The notes beneath the pieces were generated by a model. The model had not been told where the DNA came from, did not search any database, and was given only the letters and a program-made list of their open reading frames with translations. A stretch of DNA of 47,248 bases from a virus (taxonomy: Duplodnaviria; Heunggongvirae; Uroviricota; Caudoviricetes), in the IMG/VR virus record IMGVR_UViG_2721755657_000003; one strand, 5' to 3'. Shown here one piece after another: positions 1-45,717 of the stretch (its first letter is position 1; every line of letters begins with the position of its first letter). The position numbers were made by a program, and so were the translations under genes.

Positions 1-585
1 CTATTCGATAATGGGTACTGTTGGCCATTCAATATCCGGTGCAGTTGTTGTATTAACACGGTTCAGCAACACCCGATACTTCTTCCAGGCTTCCAGCAAC
101 GAGGTTTCTTCCTCCGTTGCAATTTCCAGATCTGCAGCATCCTGAAGCGGCGCAATATGCTCACTGGCTACCTGCATCAGGCTGTTTTTTGTTTCTTCCG
201 CCTCCCGGATCCGGAACAGTTTTTCTGCTTCTGCATCTTTCACCCAGGCTGTGCCGTTCCACTTCTGAAACTCCCCTTCCGGCGACAACCAGGTAACATT
301 TTCCGGTAATGAGCCGAGTTCAGAAATAAATAACGCGTCGCCGGAAGCCACGTCATAAACCGTTTTACCCCGATGATCTTCAACGAGATGCCACAATGAC
401 TCATCACTGTTGAAAACAGCCACGAAACCAGCCGGAATATCTGGCGGTGCAATATCGGTACTGTTTGCTGGCAGACCTGTATGAGGCGGAATATATGCAT
501 CACCTTCACCAATAAATTCATTAGTTCCGGACAGCAGATTATAAATTTTTATGGTCCGTGGTTGTTCACTCATTCTGAATGCCAT
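1..585 (-). CDS. tfa: tail fiber assembly protein (Tfa)
   Basis: 194-aa ORF, near-identical by eye to lambda Tfa ([18 protein letters not shown]...); start overlaps the stf stop. Confidence 0.9.
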
Positions 586-4668: not shown

Positions 4669-8070
<3,402 letters not shown>

Positions 8071-24417: not shown

Positions 24418-24669
24418 TTAGTCCTGATTTTTATCCACCCTGAGTAGTTCGCGCAGAGCAAAGGCATCCCCTTTTCTGGCAAGCTTAAACAATGCCGCTC
24501 GTAACTCGGCTTCACCTTTCGCTCTGCCCTTACGGATGGCCGCATAAAAATCTGTCATTGCTTCCCGATTTTCTTTCAGTCGGTTCAGATCAACATCCAG
24601 AACGTCAGCGATTTGTTGTGCAGTCATCCGGCACGCTGCCAGAGACTCGACTTTCGAATACGGAATCAT
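24418..24669 (-). CDS. hypothetical small protein upstream of TerS
   Basis: 83-aa ORF ending 3 nt before the TerS start; overlaps the 3' end of the 318-aa ORF, so the true start may be the internal Met at 24627. Confidence 0.4.
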   Translation of the reverse strand: MIPYSKVESLAACRMTAQQIADVLDVDLNRLKENREAMTDFYAAIRKGRAKGEAELRAALFKLARKGDAFALRELLRVDKNQD

Positions 24670-25561
24670 TTGTCACCCCCATTGATATGCAGGGTGTCTT
24701 CTTCCTGTATTTTTCGTGAAGGATTTTTACTGCAGCGTTGTTCCAGGTGACCTGATGGTGAATGCGTTTATGGCTGGCACCCATCAGTGAGATTTTTACG
24801 CACGACGGCGAATACATGACGGAGTAAAAACTTTTAACGTAGGTTCCGGAATCCAGATACAGCTCGGTCATTCCGCCGCTGTTTTTCTGCGTCTGTTTCT
24901 GCCCTAACTGGACAGCACCGATCGTCATAAACAATTCACCACAGCGACCGAGATTCGTGTACGTATTCACATCCTCGTTAATGCGCCCCATGAATGAGAA
25001 CGGTCGATCAACCGAACAGATAAAGCTGTTCATTGCCTTGCGTTTCACCCACGAAGCATGGCCGCCATTGTCACCAAGAAAATCCCCGCCCTGCGACATA
25101 GCGATGGAAAGCGCGGGTATTGATTCGTAATACGCCAGCATTTCAGAAAGGATCGCATCCAGTTTCCTTATCGGGAAATAGGCCTGGTCATAGTTGCGAT
25201 CCACCCGAAACTGGAACTCGTGATAATCATCATCGAGCTGAATGAAGTATTTACACCCGACCAGTTTTGCCAGGTCGAAACAGGCATTACGGGCGTAAAA
25301 AATTGAGCGGCGATCACCAAAATTATCGGCTTCGTCAAAACGACTGGCAATATCGGCTTTGGAAAATACCAGCACCTGTTCACCAAATTCAGCCATGTAC
25401 TGATGCCGTGTCTTATCTTCATCATCAACAACGATAAAAATTTTCCCGGTATAGCCAGCACGACGCAACGTCCGGTAAGTCAGAACTTTGTCCGGTCGCC
25501 CGTGAGTCAGAATAAAGGCGCAAAAATCATCACGCATATTCCTCCTCCTCCTCCCCGCCAT
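24605..25561 (-). CDS. hypothetical protein with acidic DxD-type motifs (possible GT-A-like nucleotide-sugar transferase fold)
   Basis: 318-aa ORF; motifs FIVVDDEDKT and FIQLDDDY followed by NEDV; function not recognisable from sequence alone. Confidence 0.45.
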   Translation of the reverse strand: MAGRRRRNMRDDFCAFILTHGRPDKVLTYRTLRRAGYTGKIFIVVDDEDKTRHQYMAEFGEQVLVFSKADIASRFDEADNFGDRRSIFYARNACFDLAKLVGCKYFIQLDDDYHEFQFRVDRNYDQAYFPIRKLDAILSEMLAYYESIPALSIAMSQGGDFLGDNGGHASWVKRKAMNSFICSVDRPFSFMGRINEDVNTYTNLGRCGELFMTIGAVQLGQKQTQKNSGGMTELYLDSGTYVKSFYSVMYSPSCVKISLMGASHKRIHHQVTWNNAAVKILHEKYRKKTPCISMGVTNDSVFESRVSGSVPDDCTTNR

Positions 25562-25630
25562 GCATGATCTCCACCATGCGCTGCGTCATTCGGACAAATC
25601 CATTTTCAATAGCCTGCTGATAATCAATGA

Positions 25631-26323
25631 TCACCAGCGCGACTCCTCGAAAAGGCACTGAATTTCAGCGGGGGCATGAGCGTAATAGTCCGCAATTCTG
25701 CTGAAATTAAACACTGTGTGACGTTCTGCCGCACACAGGAGGAATTTCTCAATATCAGGATCAAGGGACGCCGAACGTATCCGGCTGATCAGCTCCTGAG
25801 TTTTCGTATCGTCGTACAGTTCACTGATATCCGGTTTACCGCCCGACGGCTCATAAACAGGCGTATCAATTTTCGTCGTATACGGCTCCTCCTCATTTCC
25901 TGTACCGGGCAAAACATCCGTCAACAGTTCATCAATTTCTGTCGGGATGAAGCCTGTCAGGGAGACATCAAAATCAGCATTGATTAGGTCCGACAGCTCC
26001 ATCCGCAACAGATCTTCATCCCAGCCAGCATTCATCGGCAGGCGATTATCTGCCAGGCGGTACGCCTTTTTCTGCTCATCCGTCAGGCCAGACAGAACAA
26101 TGACCGGAACAGAATCCATTTTGAGCATTTCAGCCGCCATAACACGACCGTGACCCGCAATAATTTCGCCCTTTTCGTCAATCAGCACCGGATTAGTCCA
26201 GCCGAATTGCTTAATACTTTCTACCAGTTGTGCCACCTGCTCAGTACTGTGCGTCCTGGCGTTGTGCGCATACGGTGACAATTCTTGTAATGGGCGATAG
26301 ACTATCTTTAATTTCTCGCTCAT
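25631..26323 (-). CDS. ParB-like nuclease domain protein
   Basis: 230-aa ORF; N-terminal region carries the ParB/Srx-type motif (NPVLIDEKGEIIAGHGRVMAA, cf. the GxxRxxA box). Confidence 0.6.
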   Translation of the reverse strand: MSEKLKIVYRPLQELSPYAHNARTHSTEQVAQLVESIKQFGWTNPVLIDEKGEIIAGHGRVMAAEMLKMDSVPVIVLSGLTDEQKKAYRLADNRLPMNAGWDEDLLRMELSDLINADFDVSLTGFIPTEIDELLTDVLPGTGNEEEPYTTKIDTPVYEPSGGKPDISELYDDTKTQELISRIRSASLDPDIEKFLLCAAERHTVFNFSRIADYYAHAPAEIQCLFEESRW

Positions 26324-28532: not shown

Positions 28533-29014
28533 AAACAGATTTCACGCTCAATCTCACGACGAGTCATGAGACCTTTCCATTGCTTACCGCCAGCATATGT
28601 CCAGCGACGTAGCTGATCACATGCGCCTTTGATATCGCCCTGGTTTATTTTGCGAAGAAGCGTCGATGTTCTGAAATTGCCAGCACCCACGTTGTAAACG
28701 AATGAGTAAAGAGCGCCGCGCGTTGTTTCCGGTATATCGACTTTGATGTACGGGTTAATTTGTCTGGCGACCGTGGCAAGGTCTTTATTCAAGAGTGTTT
28801 TGCATTCTGCTTTGGTATACGTTTTACCGAGCATGATGTCTTTTCCTGTATGCCCGTGACATACAGTACATACACCAACAATATCTTTGTATGGTATGTA
28901 GCTGACACCTTCCAGACCATCGTTACCACTTGGGCCAGTGATTAACACTGATGCTATAGCAATTGCTCCGCCACCAATAGCAGCAGCAACGACTTTTCGT
29001 AATGATGGAGGCAT
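28517..29014 (-). CDS. R: SAR endolysin (phage 21/P1-type lysozyme)
   Basis: 165-aa ORF with a Gly/Ala-rich weakly hydrophobic N-terminal signal-anchor-release segment ([18 protein letters not shown]) followed by a lysozyme-like domain; start overlaps the holin stop. Confidence 0.85.
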
Positions 29015-29229
29015 TATTCACCTCTCGCAGCCTTGCGCTTATCTTCTTTAATCTTGAAATAAAGGTTTGTCAGGTACGTCAGTAGGCCAAATACCAGACT
29101 ACCCAGCACACCGATTGCAGCCCACTGTGACGGAGTTACTCTATCGAGCAACTGTAAAAACCAGTAGCCAGCACTGCCTGCGGAGGTGCCGTAGGCAATG
29201 CCTGTTGAAATTTTGTCCATGGATTTCAT
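29014..29229 (-). CDS. S: class II pinholin with dual-start motif (S21-like)
   Basis: ORF-track ORF trimmed to [26 protein letters not shown]...; ATG codons at 29229 and 29220 give the Met-Lys-Ser-Met dual start; two TM domains. Confidence 0.85.
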
Positions 29230-29332
29230 AGCCTCACCTCCGCACGGAACGGATGGCATAGTTATTATGTGTAGGCTTTCAGACACATCAATCAGAGCCT
29301 TAATTGATATATATGCTGGAGACGATGCAATA

Positions 29333-29355
29333 TAAAAAGCTCGCCGTAGCGAGCT
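29333..29355 (-). terminator. intrinsic terminator-like hairpin downstream of the lipoprotein cargo cassette
   Basis: Minus strand AGCUCGC-UACG-GCGAGCU (perfect 7-bp stem) followed by UUUUAUAUU; lies between lipoprotein gene 1 and the holin gene. Confidence 0.5.
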
Positions 29356-29480
29356 AATAAAATGTATTTCTCTGATATTATGTTTATTTGTATTAGCTCA
29401 GACTTGACATCACAGGTTTCGTATATAGAACATCATCAAATCTGTCAGTTTGCTATGAATGAGATATAGTAATTGAAGAG

Positions 29481-29876
29481 CTAACCTCGCATGTCAAAGC
29501 CAGATTTCTGAAAATCTCTGTAGACTTCCGGATTGTTGAAGGCCGGAAATTTGGCTTTATGAGCTGCGGACTTTATCGCTTCGCAATAGGCTTTATCACC
29601 GTTACTGGTAGATATTTTTAACGCCGTGCCATCCTGAGAGAATTCCATATGCAACCTGCATTTTTTCCCTTTCCAGTTATGCGGCTCATCAAGTTTGGCA
29701 TTAATTGCAGCTCTGATTCCCCGCGCTTGCGCCCCCCATTCATCCTGATCATCCCAGCGTCCTGAACTGCAACTACCTGTAGCAGTAGTTTTGTGGCAAT
29801 CTGAAGGGTGTAAAGGTGTGCATCCCGCAACAAAACCGACCCAAAAAGTCAACATAACGATTTTCTTTAATCCCAC
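29481..29876 (-). CDS. outer-membrane lipoprotein with divergent TolA domain III-like C-terminus
   Basis: 131-aa ORF; signal peptide plus lipobox FVAGC with Thr at +2; C-terminal half (KKCRLHMEFSQDGTALKIS...NPEVYRDFQKSGFDM) parallels the paralogue at 30027..30455. Confidence 0.6.
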   Translation of the reverse strand: MGLKKIVMLTFWVGFVAGCTPLHPSDCHKTTATGSCSSGRWDDQDEWGAQARGIRAAINAKLDEPHNWKGKKCRLHMEFSQDGTALKISTSNGDKAYCEAIKSAAHKAKFPAFNNPEVYRDFQKSGFDMRG

Positions 29877-30026
29877 TTCTTGCTCCTCAATCCATTAAAA
29901 TCTCAGCAATAGTAGTTGTTACGTCCGCCACTGGCTCAGAGCTGACTATCCGCTAAATTTAGCTCAGTGCCGTAGCTGTGTCAGAACAAACCTAAGCCGA
30001 AACCGTTTATTACAAAACAATAAATA

Positions 30027-30455
30027 TCAGGGTTTAAAATCCAGCACCCCATTTTGAAATACTTTATATACTTCCGGCGAAGGGGGGGCAGGTATATCAG
30101 CATTCTTTATCGCATTCATCGCTTCACGACATAAATCGAGGTCTCCACTTTCTCTTTTAACCTCCAGTAGAAGGCCATTCGGGGCCATATGCATTCTCAG
30201 TGTACACTCTTTTCCTGAATACTTACTCGCATCCCCGAACTGTTTTTCGATGGCGCTCTTGATTTGATGGGCATACAGACGGATATCCTCACTAACATCA
30301 GAAGTACGTTCAGATGAACTCACATACTGTGTCTCTATTGCTTTATCGGAGTAATATGATGTACGGTCATGATAATTTGTCGATACAGCATCAGTGCACC
30401 CGATAATAATCCCACTAATAATCAACGTAAGAATTGATGCGCTACGAAAACCCAT
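30027..30455 (-). CDS. outer-membrane lipoprotein with TolA C-terminal (domain III)-like domain
   Basis: 142-aa ORF; lipobox IIGC with Thr at +2; C-terminal ~85 aa match by eye the recalled E. coli TolA C-terminus (QIKSAIE..F.DAS.Y.GK.CTLR...P.G.LL......GD..LC..A..A.K.A.IP.PPS..VY.VF.N..LDFKP). Confidence 0.7.
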   Translation of the reverse strand: MGFRSASILTLIISGIIIGCTDAVSTNYHDRTSYYSDKAIETQYVSSSERTSDVSEDIRLYAHQIKSAIEKQFGDASKYSGKECTLRMHMAPNGLLLEVKRESGDLDLCREAMNAIKNADIPAPPSPEVYKVFQNGVLDFKP

Positions 30456-30484
30456 TTTTCCTCACATATGTCATATAGTAAAGG

Positions 30485-30514
30485 ATTATATATACCGTTG
30501 TTTTGGACGCTCAA
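30485..30514 (-). promoter_or_regulatory. candidate sigma70 promoter for the lipoprotein cassette
   Basis: Minus strand TTGAGC (-35), ~18-nt spacer, TATAAT (-10), then a GAGGAAAA RBS before the ATG at 30455. Confidence 0.45.
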
Positions 30515-31392
30515 ACAGCGAATCAGATCAAATAAAACGCACATTTGTTAACATTTACACAAAGTCTGCGTGGGATATTCTGAAAGAATATCCATAATGT
30601 GGAGAGAATCTATTGAAGTGCATGGTGCCGGGTGCCTCCCGGTGAACAAAATGTTCGTGATACCTGTCGGCGACAGAAAAGGTTAATGGTATCACCCCAC
30701 CGCACAGGGGGATTCACCATGCAGGAGTTTTCTTAGCAAACTCACTGCGCGCCCGGCAACTCCCAACCACATAAAATGCGGAGTTTGTGGTATTTATGCA
30801 TATAACTCGCAGGAATTATCTTAAAAAACTGATGTCGATCCGGATTAAAAAGAAGCAGGTCATCATCAGATGACTGGAAAAAAGGAAAACAAAAAATACT
30901 CATCATACAGTTTTGATTGCAGGGATGAGCCTGCTATGCACAATATGCAGAATATAAGCAAGATAAAAATATGCAGGCATATTATTTCGGATTTTGTTAT
31001 TAACACAACCTTTTTAATAATCATTTGGCATACAATAAACCAGCCCAAAAAGAACCGCCTAAACAGGCGGTTGGTTAATACAAAGGATGCTTCGTCTTTA
31101 TTATAGTAATCTGAGGCGTCGGGTGTCTTGTATCAGACAACATATTGTCCCGCTAAACAGCGAATTACAAACCACCCTGCAATGATCTCTCATCTCATTT
31201 TATATGAGTTGACGACATCAGGATAACGCATCATCAGCCCCTGCCAAGAAATATCAAAACTCCCGCCAGCAATGTGTTATCACAATATTGTAAAAAAAAC
31301 ACAGCACCGAAACTATAACTGGTCTCTGTTATAATTTGGAGCAGAAAGACCAGTTGCCCAACTAGCAGCATTCTCCCCTGCTTTCCTGACGT

Positions 31393-31500: not shown

Positions 31501-32043
31501 TCAAGCCATTTTCTCAGCAAATGATTCACGCATGGGAATATATAGGGCATACTCAGCAACAGCTAACCAATTAGCAATCCGTTTTTCGCATGTGCTAAAA
31601 CACCACTCTGGGTGTGCATCATTTAGCAATTCAGCCATTTTGCGCTTAGCCATCCCCCGCCCTTCATAGCGTTGCCGGAGAATGCAAATCAATCCTGGAT
31701 GCTCTGCCAGCACCTCACTTATGACTCGATCAATACATAACGCCTCTGCATCAGTACAATGCGCCAGCCAGCTCTTTTGCTTGCCGTTGATCATCTCTCG
31801 CAAAAACGCTTCCAGCTCAGCTTTCTCTATTCCCGCTTTTTTCATTCTGCGCAGGGCTTCATTAATGGCTGTTTTCGTCAGTTTTTTGGATGCCAACAAC
31901 TGATTGAACATATTCCCTGACCTGCCACCGCCAATATACGACCAGCGCCCCCACATACGTAGTTTTCCCTGAATCCAGACACTTTCCAGCGTGGTGAGGC
32001 GAAGGTGTTCTCCGCTTTTTCCTGTATTCGTTGGGTAAATCAT
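31501..32043 (-). CDS. putative late-gene antiterminator Q (family unresolved)
   Basis: 180-aa ORF, last gene of the nin-like operon, followed by a short leader and a strong intrinsic terminator ahead of the lysis region; positional inference, no similarity to lambda Q recognised. Confidence 0.45.
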   Translation of the reverse strand: MIYPTNTGKSGEHLRLTTLESVWIQGKLRMWGRWSYIGGGRSGNMFNQLLASKKLTKTAINEALRRMKKAGIEKAELEAFLREMINGKQKSWLAHCTDAEALCIDRVISEVLAEHPGLICILRQRYEGRGMAKRKMAELLNDAHPEWCFSTCEKRIANWLAVAEYALYIPMRESFAEKMA

Positions 32044-33617: not shown

Positions 33618-35687
33618 TTACTTACATTTATTATTTAAATAGACCCTTATGTACTGATCGAGCAGTTTACCTAATTGTTTATTAACTTCGTCATGTTTTT
33701 GCGGGCTTCTCATTTTTGACAGATGCCTTTCAAGGAACTTAGAGGGTAACTTCACAACTAATTTATTATGATTATCATAAATTTCTTTTACCCACGTAAG
33801 CTCTTTATGTTTTTCTAAATTCTCTGTGTGATCTCTATTTATGATAAAAGCTATCCGCCCATAGTCTTTAAACAAATAGGAATTTACCTGTCTATATTCT
33901 GCAGCACCTAATGTTTTATAGTTTTTCACTTCAAAAACAACTTGCCGTGTCTGATAATCTGTCAGAATTCTCTTCCAAACTGGAGTGTCAGCTATATTTG
34001 TCGCTATAATATCTCTTTGCTGCAACCCATTTTTATTGGGATGCAACTCAATGTTCGTTAAATTCGTAGCAAATAGTAACTTTATAGTTTTGAGCGCCCA
34101 TGCTTCAAAATCGACAGCACCTTCAGGTCCTTCAGGTATATTATGTAGTTCTTGGAGCAACGAACCGATTCGTTGTTTCCTCTGCTCTTCGGAAACAGAG
34201 CTGACCTCAATATCATATTCATCATGAATATCATCAGCAGCATCGGGAGTCATCTCTGATTCATGAACACTTAATGCTAGCCAGTAGCATGGATGCAATA
34301 GCAATTTTGAATCTGGTGTAAATTCTTTTTCAGGTTCCTTACCGTCATGGCAAAATACATATGAAGATGACTGCTGGTTATACAACCCAATAAATCCAAC
34401 ACTGTAAAGTCGTTGAATCACCTGGATTGGCCCTTCAAAAAGAAGTAAATCCTGCATTTTCATCTTGTCAATAACGCCATTGAGATCAAGGGCATATTGT
34501 ATCTTAGATGACGCTTCAGAAACACTGTAGTAAGGTTTGCTATTAGCAAATTGCGATGTAAATATATCTAATGCAGGAAATACATTCTCATATTCTTTTA
34601 ACAAATCATTGAGTCTATTTTGTGAAATAGTATTCGCTGTTGCTTGAATGTCATCAATGACAATACGATTACGATCATGTGTGTTTGCTCGCAAGAATGC
34701 ATTATTTAACAAAACCAAAATATCTCTTGGCCTATATAGAGTCAGTTTCAATGTTTCTTTAAAACCGGTATTAGACTGTAATTCATTTGCGGTGTAAGCA
34801 TTCCACACCCTCGTGTTGTTCTCAATGGTTGAGTTAAAAGCGACCCTCATTCTATTGCATACAAGATTAAACAAGTTATATTCATCCCAATGTAATCTCA
34901 GTACTTGCCCTTCAATATTTCGAGTAAAATCAGGGTCCATTTTTGATATGGCTCGATGAATATTATCTCTAACAAATGCAAAGGCAATAACCTTTTCATT
35001 CATATTTTGTTTTATATCAATCACAGCCTGAATGAAACCATCAACTATTGCAACACCAAGATTATCCGGTGTATAGCCTTCATCAAGCCTATCAGCAAAA
35101 ATAACAAATTGATTATTTGACTTCGAAATTGCTTCTTCTATCACCTCTTCCAATAAGTCAAGTTCAAATTTATCGGATAATTCGGCTATTCTTGTAGCTG
35201 GTTTTATATTTTTGTTATCATCGAGAATAGCGTTCAATTTTTTTCTTATTTTGCTACTTATATTTTGTCTCTTCGGTCCCCAAGATAATAAATGCGACTC
35301 TACACTTTTGTAGTCAAGATCGTTTTTCATCTTGTAATGACTTGCGATCTCAGAAAGCAGCTCCATATAAATAGCATATCGCCATGCTAACTTGCTACCG
35401 GCTTTTATATGTAAGTAATTTTCACCAAATAAAGAAATAACATCCCTTAATCCAATAATTTGTTCTTCAACCGGACTAATAGTCATCACATAGGTTTTTG
35501 GCTTAGCATGCCAATGTTTGGAAAGCATATGCACCAGAGCACTTTTTCCTGTTCCTCTGCGGCCAACAATGATGCATCGATCGTAGGATTCGAGAAGAGC
35601 TTTATAATCAGTTGTTTGCCAAAATGAAGCTTCCAACATCTTTTCGTCATGTTCAGCTCGGATATCCCCAAGAATATTACCTTTCAT
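33618..35687 (-). CDS. P-loop NTPase with C-terminal PD-(D/E)xK-like nuclease motif (candidate anti-phage defence / abortive-infection protein)
   Basis: 689-aa ORF, strongly AT-rich versus flanks; Walker A GRRGTGKS (aa 42-49); Walker B-like VIFADRLDE (~aa 193-201); C-terminal QQRDIIATN...VVFEVKNYK fits D...(D/E)xK; AAGGA RBS; own terminator. Confidence 0.7.
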   Translation of the reverse strand: MKGNILGDIRAEHDEKMLEASFWQTTDYKALLESYDRCIIVGRRGTGKSALVHMLSKHWHAKPKTYVMTISPVEEQIIGLRDVISLFGENYLHIKAGSKLAWRYAIYMELLSEIASHYKMKNDLDYKSVESHLLSWGPKRQNISSKIRKKLNAILDDNKNIKPATRIAELSDKFELDLLEEVIEEAISKSNNQFVIFADRLDEGYTPDNLGVAIVDGFIQAVIDIKQNMNEKVIAFAFVRDNIHRAISKMDPDFTRNIEGQVLRLHWDEYNLFNLVCNRMRVAFNSTIENNTRVWNAYTANELQSNTGFKETLKLTLYRPRDILVLLNNAFLRANTHDRNRIVIDDIQATANTISQNRLNDLLKEYENVFPALDIFTSQFANSKPYYSVSEASSKIQYALDLNGVIDKMKMQDLLLFEGPIQVIQRLYSVGFIGLYNQQSSSYVFCHDGKEPEKEFTPDSKLLLHPCYWLALSVHESEMTPDAADDIHDEYDIEVSSVSEEQRKQRIGSLLQELHNIPEGPEGAVDFEAWALKTIKLLFATNLTNIELHPNKNGLQQRDIIATNIADTPVWKRILTDYQTRQVVFEVKNYKTLGAAEYRQVNSYLFKDYGRIAFIINRDHTENLEKHKELTWVKEIYDNHNKLVVKLPSKFLERHLSKMRSPQKHDEVNKQLGKLLDQYIRVYLNNKCK

Positions 35688-45323: not shown

Positions 45324-45515
45324 AGATATGACAATGTTAAACCATGTCCATTTTGTGGTTGTCCATCAGTAACGGTGAAAGCCATTTCAGGATATTACCG
45401 AGCGAAGTGTAACGGATGCGAATCCCGAACCGGTTATGGTGGAAGTGAAAAAGAAGCACTCGAAAGATGGAATAAACGAACCACTGGAAATAATAATGGA
45501 GGTGTTCATGTATAA
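45324..45515 (+). CDS. ralR: RalR (Lar) restriction-alleviation protein / type I toxin
   Basis: 64-aa Cys-rich protein MRYDNVKPCPFCGCPSVTVKAISGYYRAKCNGCESRTGYGG...; start chosen as recalled for K-12. Confidence 0.8.
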   Translation, partial: RYDNVKPCPFCGCPSVTVKAISGYYRAKCNGCESRTGYGGSEKEALERWNKRTTGNNNGGVHV

Positions 45516-45717
45516 AATTACCGCCACTATTGAAAAGGAAGGTGGCACTTCTACTAACTGGACAAGATATTCAAAATCTAAACTAACGAAATCAGAATGC
45601 GAAAAAATGCTCTCAGGTAAAAAAGAAGCAGGCGTTTCCAGAGAGCAGAAAGTAAAACTGATAAATTTTAATTGCGAGAAACTTCAGTCCTCGAGAATTG
45701 CATTGTATTCAAATTAA
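45508..45717 (+). CDS. ydaC: YdaC
   Basis: 69-aa ORF MYKITATIEKEGGTSTNWTRYSKSKLTKSECEK... overlapping the ralR stop. Confidence 0.65.
   Translation: MYKITATIEKEGGTSTNWTRYSKSKLTKSECEKMLSGKKEAGVSREQKVKLINFNCEKLQSSRIALYSN

Follow-up and report, generated by a model that had tools for sequence, protein, structure and literature searches.

Small lipoproteins such as Llp of phage T5, Cor of phi80, N15 and HK022, Bor of lambda with its plasmid relative Iss, and TraT of F are accessory products of temperate phages and conjugative plasmids, often encoded beside the lysis genes. These exclusion or conversion lipoproteins alter how the envelope reacts to serum or to attack by phages and colicins; Llp and Cor mask the outer-membrane receptor FhuA and protect against a colicin as well as against phages. 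Tolerance has also been linked to TolA's C-terminal domain (domain III, TolA-III). Boeke, Model and Zinder are said to have described in 1982 a g3p-mediated exclusion, in which occupation of TolA-III by g3p results in tolerance to group A colicins and Ff phages, while Levengood-Freyermuth, Click and Webster reportedly found in 1993 that soluble periplasmic TolA-III renders Escherichia coli colicin-tolerant and leaky. Here we analysed two adjacent genes, A and B, of the Caudoviricetes sequence IMGVR_UViG_2721755657_000003 from IMG/VR, the full 47,248 nucleotides of which are called the window below. Both encode putative lipoproteins whose C-terminal ~88 residues, judged from alignments and predicted models, are a genuine TolA domain III:

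30027..30455, minus strand: gene A, 142-aa lipoprotein precursor, from the open reading frame (ORF) listing, with the Shine-Dalgarno sequence GAGGA
29481..29876, minus strand: gene B, 131-aa lipoprotein precursor with a GTG start, from the ORF listing, with the Shine-Dalgarno sequence GAGGAG

The two proteins are like Llp, Cor, Bor, Iss and TraT in being small lipoproteins carried as accessory phage or plasmid cargo, but no relationship in sequence or fold to any of these was seen in Pfam, PHROGs or NCBIfam. Besides, Llp and Cor mask a receptor, whereas A and B would imitate a hub domain of the periplasm and absorb the invader's translocation epitope. With laboratory over-expression of TolA-III and with g3p exclusion they would share the extra or occupied periplasmic TolA-III, which led to colicin and Ff tolerance in those cases. 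Those cases, however, are artificial or rely on the filamentous phage's own protein and come with a leaky tol phenotype, whereas A and B are natural, diverged and predicted to be lipid-tethered.

The resemblance to TolA-III goes well past what chance would give. The Pfam family PF06519 (TolA C-terminal; cut-off 25 bits) matches A over aa 49–140 with 82.6 bits (E 2e-23) and B over aa 44–125 with 54.6 bits (E 1.3e-14). Using phmmer on the PDB, the E. coli TolA-III structures 1S62, 3QDP, 2X9A and 1TOL were recovered with E-values of 5e-28 for A and 5e-9 for residues 50–129 of B. Residues 55–142 of A align gap-free to residues 334–421 of E. coli TolA at ~59% identity, and the C-terminus LDFKP is common to both. 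AlphaFold2 (AF2) models of the two proteins were then superposed on solved TolA-III by Foldseek. The model of A has a confidence score (pLDDT) above 90 over residues 52–140 and fits 2X9A_B with a template modelling (TM) score of 0.96 and a root-mean-square deviation (rmsd) of 0.6 Å at 59% identity; that of B has a pLDDT above 90 over residues 45–131 and fits 3QDP with a TM score of 0.92 and an rmsd of 1.1 Å at 31% identity. Both display the order alpha1-beta1-beta2-alpha2-alpha3-beta3, as TolA-III does, behind 38–49 disordered residues. The two disulfide cysteines of TolA-III (C363 and C388 in E. coli) are invariant in alignments of 21–22 family members, which points to a folded periplasmic domain. 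A first-pass annotation, made from the sequence alone, had proposed that the C-termini of A and B resemble TolA domain III and had suggested alignment and structure prediction as a check; both proteins align significantly and both models superpose, so that the resemblance holds.

The N-terminus of A, MGFRSASILTLIISGIIIG before C20-T21, is composed of a hydrophobic core preceded by a short basic n-region and followed by the lipobox IIG/C20 with Thr at +2 (IIG/C-T-D, the slash marking the cleavage site), and a disordered linker (aa 21–51) leads from there to the TolA-III domain (aa 52–142). In B, MGLKKIVMLTFWVGFVAG before C19-T20 is built in the same way around the lipobox VAG/C19, again with Thr at +2 (VAG/C-T-P). 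The start of B chosen by the Prokaryotic Genome Annotation Pipeline (PGAP) lies 7 codons further in, where the Lys-Lys n-region is gone, and the GTG start gives the better signal peptide. The lipoboxes with Thr at +2 reported from the first reading are thus present in both proteins (IIG/C20-T21 in A, VAG/C19-T20 in B), and both agree with the lipobox pattern [LVI][ASTVI][GAS]C. In the Lol system, a +2 residue other than Asp leads to sorting to the outer membrane. By this rule A and B are predicted to be Lol-sorted to the inner leaflet of the outer membrane, where each would expose a free-standing TolA-III on a ~30-residue tether in the outer periplasm, within a few nm of the outer membrane.

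The difference from TolA itself is one of architecture. Fold and disulfide are the same (~59% identity for A, ~31% for B), and the beta3 and beta2 edge strands are kept in A. Both proteins lack the inner-membrane anchor (domain I), in place of which stands a cleavable lipoprotein signal peptide with a lipobox, and at 142 and 131 aa in all they lack the periplasm-spanning domain II. Because domains I and II are absent, A and B would not be energisable by TolQR and are expected to have no coupling to the proton-motive force. They are predicted to be lipid-anchored to the opposite membrane, and their genes lie outside the ybgC-tolQRA-tolB-pal-cpoB operon. A was searched by phmmer against 1.84 billion representative proteins, giving 333 matches. 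Among the best 150 of these, 69 are 100–175 aa long, and 44 of the 69 have a lipobox, none with Asp at +2; the residue found there in the homologues seen is T, A, G or S. Examples in Serratia and Gibbsiella are ordinary single chromosomal genes. The scan and the chromosomal examples indicate that 'lipoprotein + TolA-III' is a broad class, named by its domain and functionally undescribed. A Tatumella 'short TolA' (P0319) was discarded as a split real tolA.

In RefSeq, gene A is named by PGAP 'tolA: cell envelope integrity protein TolA'. The label arises because A passes the laxer cut-off of TIGR02794 (75.6 bits vs 59.45), a score reached on the C-terminal domain alone; B stays below that cut-off. 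With NF007065, the TolA equivalog, A obtains 107.8 and B 53.7 against a cut-off of 213, and the profile match is confined to the last ~95 model positions. The Pfam and NCBIfam matches of both proteins are TolA/TonB C-terminal domains alone. The name 'tolA' over-annotates gene A, could lead pangenome or 'serum resistome' comparisons astray and deserves correction.

The PGAP name, the exact coincidence of the end of A with that of TolA and the many truncated copies in databases could be taken to mean that A and B are inert leftovers, i.e. pieces of a captured tolA that have no function and are passively inherited with the holin module. We hold this to be highly improbable. Signal peptides, lipoboxes and ribosome-binding sites are complete in A and B; in variants of A from other prophages (A-variants, 66–74% aa identity to A) the signal peptide and linker are ~50% diverged and the lipobox is nevertheless kept; and the cassette is 99–100% conserved in 774 genomes. 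In addition, dN/dS was determined by the Nei-Gojobori method, for B on the mature protein of the phage, plasmid, pO157, Citrobacter, Serratia and Enterobacter copies. B gave values of 0.04–0.12 at dS 0.5–1.1, that is strong purifying selection, and A with its variants ~0.3 (dS ranging from 0.3 to 1.1 over the analysis of both genes). Neither gene is thus a decaying fragment, and the selection analysis effectively excludes the inert-remnant reading; the partner of B is probably something conserved. Nor does A look like a recent capture, since no TolA donor nearer to A than E. coli TolA was found in the 1.84 billion representative proteins.

A and B are 29% identical to each other (E 2e-18). A neighbour-joining tree built on the 100 residues of the domain resolves poorly and served for nearest neighbours alone: outside its own family A is closest to E. 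coli TolA-III, and B sits on a long isolated branch, so that the two are not a recent tandem duplication. The two genes had initially been called paralogous; the term stands in a broad sense only: A shares 59% identity with host TolA, far more than the 29% that it shares with B, and the long branch of B is a separate one.

CpoB has its reported binding site on TolA domain II, not on domain III. The first-pass annotation had described TolA-III as bound by Pal, TolB and CpoB, of which TolB is borne out (PMC4339652) and Pal is not, a contact of TolA-III with Pal not being seen with purified proteins (review PMC7391070). Ligands dock on two edges of the domain. On the beta3 edge, the N-terminus of TolB adds in parallel and g3p-N1 and colicin N (ColN) in antiparallel orientation (PMC4339652; PMC7391070; PMC7066135), and the single mutations D418P or K420P in TolA abolish binding of ColN, g3p and TolB (PMC4339652). 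Colicin A (ColA) uses the beta2 edge via L375-P380 together with K368, K379 and K396 (PMC3365938). The affinity of TolA-III is 1 µM for ColN and 40 µM for TolB in one study (PMC4339652), and the TolA-TolB affinity spans 40–250 µM (PMC7066135; PMC4339652). In the ungapped alignment, beta3 of A reads NGVLDFKP for NAPLDFKP of TolA, so that D418 and K420 are kept and no prolines added, and beta2 reads LLEVKR for LLDIKP, where K379 and K396 are retained and His replaces K368. Beta3 of B is KSGFDMRG, with D418 kept, K420 replaced by Arg and no prolines, and its beta2 is ALKIST, where the three ColA-contact lysines are replaced (Glu, Ser, His). By its residues, A is a close surface mimic of TolA-III on both edges, and B could still present the beta3 edge, not the ColA site.

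We tentatively propose, with a probability of roughly 40%, that A and B are outer-membrane-tethered mimics of TolA-III which capture ligands that dock by strand augmentation, group A colicins and g3p among them. Both would compete with TolA, through beta3 for the ColN T-domain, the g3p-N1 of Ff- and If1-type phages and the TolB N-terminus, and through beta2 for the ColA T-domain. Given that invaders bind at ~1 µM (ColN) and are met first at the outer membrane, as against 40–250 µM for TolB, a tethered decoy, even at modest expression, would trap invaders first and barely disturb the TolA-TolB cycle. Carriers would become tolerant to Tol-dependent bacteriocins, exclude filamentous phages, or both, which would make the cassette a trait of lysogenic conversion or exclusion. 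Retention in A of beta3 with D418 and K420 and of most of the ColA site on beta2 is compatible with a decoy. The moron-like layout of the cassette, with a promoter-like site in front and a strong terminator ahead of the holin, also fits:

30514..30485, minus strand: sigma-70-like promoter candidate, TTGAGC-18-TATAAT, 10/12 consensus matches, among the two best sites in 2.8 kb
29328..29355, minus strand: intrinsic terminator after gene B, with a 7-bp GC-rich stem (29355..29338) and 4-nt loop followed by a T-run

The terminator is convincing (ΔG -13 kcal/mol, z -3.18, 1 of 200 shuffles equally stable). The promoter is plausible, not shown, because this AT-rich stretch yields many such sites by chance, 12 being found where 7.0 +/- 2.6 are expected. 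Of the own promoter and terminator first noted for the cassette, the terminator is therefore upheld, and for the promoter a 10/12 site is present of a kind that is common by chance. The pair in the window would be transcribed in the lysogen from its own promoter, stopping at the terminator before the holin, and after induction read-through from pR' would also cover A and B. No promoter is common to the window and the A-variants or B copies, homology beginning at the ribosome-binding site or the coding sequence.

The distribution of the cassette was then followed in genomes and phage records. The 1.5-kb cassette region is found in 774 of 5426 complete E. coli genomes (at least 99% identity, at least 80% coverage), and gene A in 888 genomes. 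It travels as part of a larger unit:

29013..30646, no strand assigned: mosaic block of holin, B, A, promoter and ~130 nt upstream, 99–100% identical between carriers, with varying Q and endolysin flanks

Breakpoints at 29013/29027 and 30646 were seen in about half of 80 IMG/VR loci, which are prophage contigs with an identical gene A, the remaining loci being collinear with the window. The same block stands behind a different Q and before different lysis genes in phage mEp460_ev081 (LR597641.1); together with that half of the 80 loci, it places the same cargo in otherwise different phage backbones. mEp460_ev081, which carries both A and B, is also the sole record with either gene among 50,697 GenBank phage records, tblastn included; the cassette is prophage cargo, rare in isolated phages. 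To judge by its name this phage is a laboratory-evolved isolate, and its holin is annotated as 'Phage tail fiber protein'.

A-variants occur alone, at the stxAB position of stx-negative Stx-like prophages (5001-5429 in each of the loci L014 and L015), in the order Q, tRNA-Ile, tRNA-Arg, tolA-like gene (the A-variant), nanS-p esterase, DUF1378, DUF826, holin. The likeness to stx1/stx2 cargo with its tRNAs and nanS-p is in the shared Q-to-S slot, where A-variants replace stxAB between tRNA-Ile/tRNA-Arg and nanS-p and where late read-through is expected. The products differ, A being an envelope lipoprotein and not a secreted toxin, and the cassette of the window differs by its own promoter-like site and terminator. 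DNA 5' of the A-variants is unrelated to the promoter region of the window. As the A-variants have no convincing promoter of their own, late, induction-dependent expression has to be weighed beside lysogenic conversion.

Gene B has a wider range. A ~88% identical gene is present on more than 600 plasmids, with 525 plasmid places within complete E. coli genomes, directly 3' of the relaxase gene nikB on I-complex (IncI1/B/O-typed) plasmids, and in ~590 plasmids the two genes are contiguous; pO157, the O157 virulence plasmid, has a copy of B next to a truncated nikB. Two of the plasmid loci are:

7001-7432 in locus L012: B-like plasmid gene beside nikB, ~88% identical to B
7004-7435 in locus L013: B-like plasmid gene beside nikB, ~88% identical to B

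No promoter-like site of its own was found for the nikB-adjacent B, which may share a transcript with nikAB. Phage and plasmid copies are homologous over the ORF and the ribosome-binding site alone. Chromosomal copies, 65–89% identical, lie at unrelated non-phage loci in ~30 Enterobacterales species representatives, the genera including Enterobacter, Leclercia, Lelliottia, Klebsiella, Raoultella, Citrobacter, Pluralibacter, Pantoea, Kluyvera, Yokenella, Serratia and Rouxiella, and no neighbour gene is conserved across genera in 33 chromosomal loci. The 'cargo cassette' of the first-pass annotation thus holds for the Q-to-holin slot and not for B as a phage-specific gene, in view of its presence on I-complex plasmids, pO157 and Enterobacterales chromosomes. 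Mobile or accessory DNA of three kinds is thus involved, none of the neighbours being conserved, as would suit a self-sufficient protective gene whose target is host machinery that is itself conserved. The pili of I-complex plasmids are the receptor of the filamentous phage If1, and PDB entry 2X9A is reported to be the complex of If1 g3p with TolA-III. Given this link, the decoy view agrees with B being a backbone gene of I-complex conjugative plasmids.

The purifying selection on B across genera, without conserved neighbours, fits a conserved host partner such as TolB and favours the main rival explanation: A and B would modulate Tol-Pal, a tethered TolA-III binding the conserved N-terminal 'TolA box' of TolB at the outer membrane and damping the TolA-driven removal of TolB from Pal. 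It would tune outer-membrane stability and vesiculation, and strong late expression would weaken the outer membrane and aid lysis or release. Retention of the TolB-site residues D418 and K420 (Arg in B), the place of the cassette within the late transcription unit and its co-inheritance with the holin, and the stx-slot A-variants without a convincing promoter are in agreement with it. So is the leaky tol phenotype that periplasmic TolA-III causes. Modulation of the TolB interactions with Pal or TolA could moreover regulate vesicle production (review PMC7391070). The weak TolA-TolB affinity, however, would call for strong expression; carriers would pay dearly for a constitutive tol-like defect, yet B persists stably on plasmids and chromosomes without lysis genes; the promoter-terminator pair isolates the cassette from the holin and suits lysogenic expression better than a role in lysis; and the outer membrane is already served by the spanins Rz/Rz1. 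We regard Tol-Pal modulation as unlikely on the whole.

The N-terminus of mature B adds a feature of its own. Residues 19–48 (29733..29822) follow the pattern C-x-PLHPS-x-C-HKTTATGS-C-SSGRWDDQDEW, near-invariant from the E. coli phage to the Serratia chromosome, with two extra cysteines and a Trp/acidic stretch in a region that AF2 predicts to be disordered. With dN of 0.03–0.09 at dS above 0.8, these first 29 mature residues are constrained as much as the fold. The TolB box of colicins is DG(S/T)GWSSE..W (PMC2821528); the motif of B resembles it loosely, with a different spacing and no Asp-Gly, and is a lead rather than evidence.

This constraint, together with the ~31% identity of B to TolA-III and its long isolated branch, could mean, above all for B, that the TolA/TonB-like fold, in B with the Cys/Trp motif, has been neofunctionalised for a different ligand and another envelope task: conjugation, serum or bile resistance of the Bor/Iss/TraT kind, or masking of a receptor from the periplasmic side as with T5 Llp and Cor. 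The location of B directly 3' of nikB on ~590 plasmids, without a promoter-like site of its own, and the many separate lipoprotein + TolA-III lineages at ordinary chromosomal loci also speak for such reuse. It is nonetheless improbable in our estimate, as the nearness of A to TolA-III (59% identity, with both docking strands retained) means that a wholly new ligand is not the most economical reading, Pfam, PHROGs and NCBIfam give no similarity to Llp, Cor, Bor or TraT, and no conserved partner gene was found.

The decoy proposal can also be taken further. Lipid-tethered TolA-III mimics would then be a widespread 'translocon-decoy' immunity of prophages, I-complex plasmids, pO157 and chromosomal islets, in which A catches the epitopes of ColA, ColN and g3p and B clamps TolB through its TolA-III and N-terminal motif. 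Colicins that depend on TolB would not be energised, and Enterobacterales would be protected from Tol-dependent bacteriocins and pilus-specific filamentous phages. This extension we consider doubtful.

Several observations weigh against interception of colicins and g3p by A and B. B lacks all three ColA-contact lysines, and its beta3 shares D418 alone with TolA. The conservation of B (dN/dS 0.04–0.12) suggests one conserved partner, not an arms race with diverse colicins and phages, and a simple decoy gives no account of its invariant N-terminal Cys/Trp motif. Because B is without the ColA lysines, not phage-specific and strongly conserved, a colicin decoy evolved by phages fits A better than B. 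A decoy that binds TolB could be costly. The promoter of the cassette in the window is a consensus match alone, and in the stx slot the A-variants have a weak promoter-like site and no terminator, so that most of their expression may come after induction, at a stage where exclusion is of less use. Only 1 of the 50,697 phage records carries A and B, and PADLOC gives no match for either protein.

The genes and their domain are already recorded in RefSeq. No functional study of these proteins was found in full-text literature searches, and a search by accession number also gave no paper; no discussion of the architecture, the spread or the decoy logic of A and B was found in the literature searched. 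The statement from the first reading that no function has been characterised is in line with these searches, with the empty PADLOC result and with the PHROG family of the proteins, phrog_5772, which is listed as of 'unknown function'. Mentions of 'TolA' set aside as irrelevant were those of EC958, which is the real tolA, unexplained list entries and EDL933_2012; the last is a confused remark on a listed 'tail fiber protein', possibly a holin misnamed by RAST as in mEp460_ev081. Nothing here rests on any of these mentions.

Group A colicins and filamentous phages enter by way of Tol-Pal, which is also a mainstay of a stable outer membrane, and a natural mobile copy of TolA-III is carried by about one in six complete E. 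coli genomes, hundreds of conjugative plasmids, the O157 virulence plasmid and many Enterobacterales chromosomes. If A and B are decoys, they would represent a new logic of protection, mimicry of the host import handle instead of masking of a surface receptor, with a bearing on strain variation in colicin and bacteriocin sensitivity, on plasmid-specific phage therapy and on vesicle production. If they tune TolB-Pal instead, no accessory regulator of Tol-Pal would have been known before them.

A full-length prophage of the Rac family, located at ttcA, makes up the window; it carries intR, xisR, ralR/RalA, recET, kilR, sieB, ydaSTUV and trkG. The small RNA (sRNA) RalA, antitoxin of the RalR toxin, has an Rfam match of 224 bits at 45514..45692 (minus strand), above the gathering score, which confirms the Rac lineage. 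The features around the cassette, in the order of transcription, are:

31501..32043, minus strand: Q-like late regulator, DUF1133, with weak Phage_antitermQ similarity
31129..31100, minus strand: candidate late promoter (pR'-like), 3' of the Q-like gene
31072..31053, minus strand: tR'-like terminator, 3' of the Q-like gene
30566..30752, minus strand: homologue of the STnc100-family sRNA (Rfam RF02076, 86.6 bits vs gathering score 47, full length)
29014..29229, minus strand: phage-21-type holin (pinholin, essD-like, with an MKSM dual start; PF04971, E 4.5e-35; essD in PGAP)

Genes for DUF1367 and YbcO proteins also lie 5' of the cassette, followed by the DUF1133 protein in the Q position. The order of Q-like gene, tR'-like terminator, A, B and holin agrees with the two lipoprotein genes having been placed between the Q terminator and the holin. 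The STnc100-family homologue stands between the tR'-like terminator and the promoter-like site of the cassette, and the boundary of the mobile block at 30646 falls inside it. The holin is followed by a lysozyme, which its hydrophobic N-terminus suggests to be of the signal-anchor-release type, by Rz with embedded Rz1, and then by trkG.

Elsewhere in the window, the IS009 sRNA has an Rfam match of 227 bits, above the gathering score, near the tail-fibre end (44..242, minus strand). An ORF of 689 aa (33618..35687, minus strand), located in a variable region between the replication and nin-like genes, gives weak P-loop, STAND and ORC-CDC6-like matches; at its position E. coli SE11 has DUF262 and TPR proteins and an IS3, and the variable region may be a hotspot of anti-phage defence. 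Between trkG and the small terminase, 24605..26323 (minus strand) encodes a TET-associated glycosyltransferase (PF20691, E 6e-35) and a ParB/Srx-like protein, a pair that may form a DNA-modification module of the prophage.

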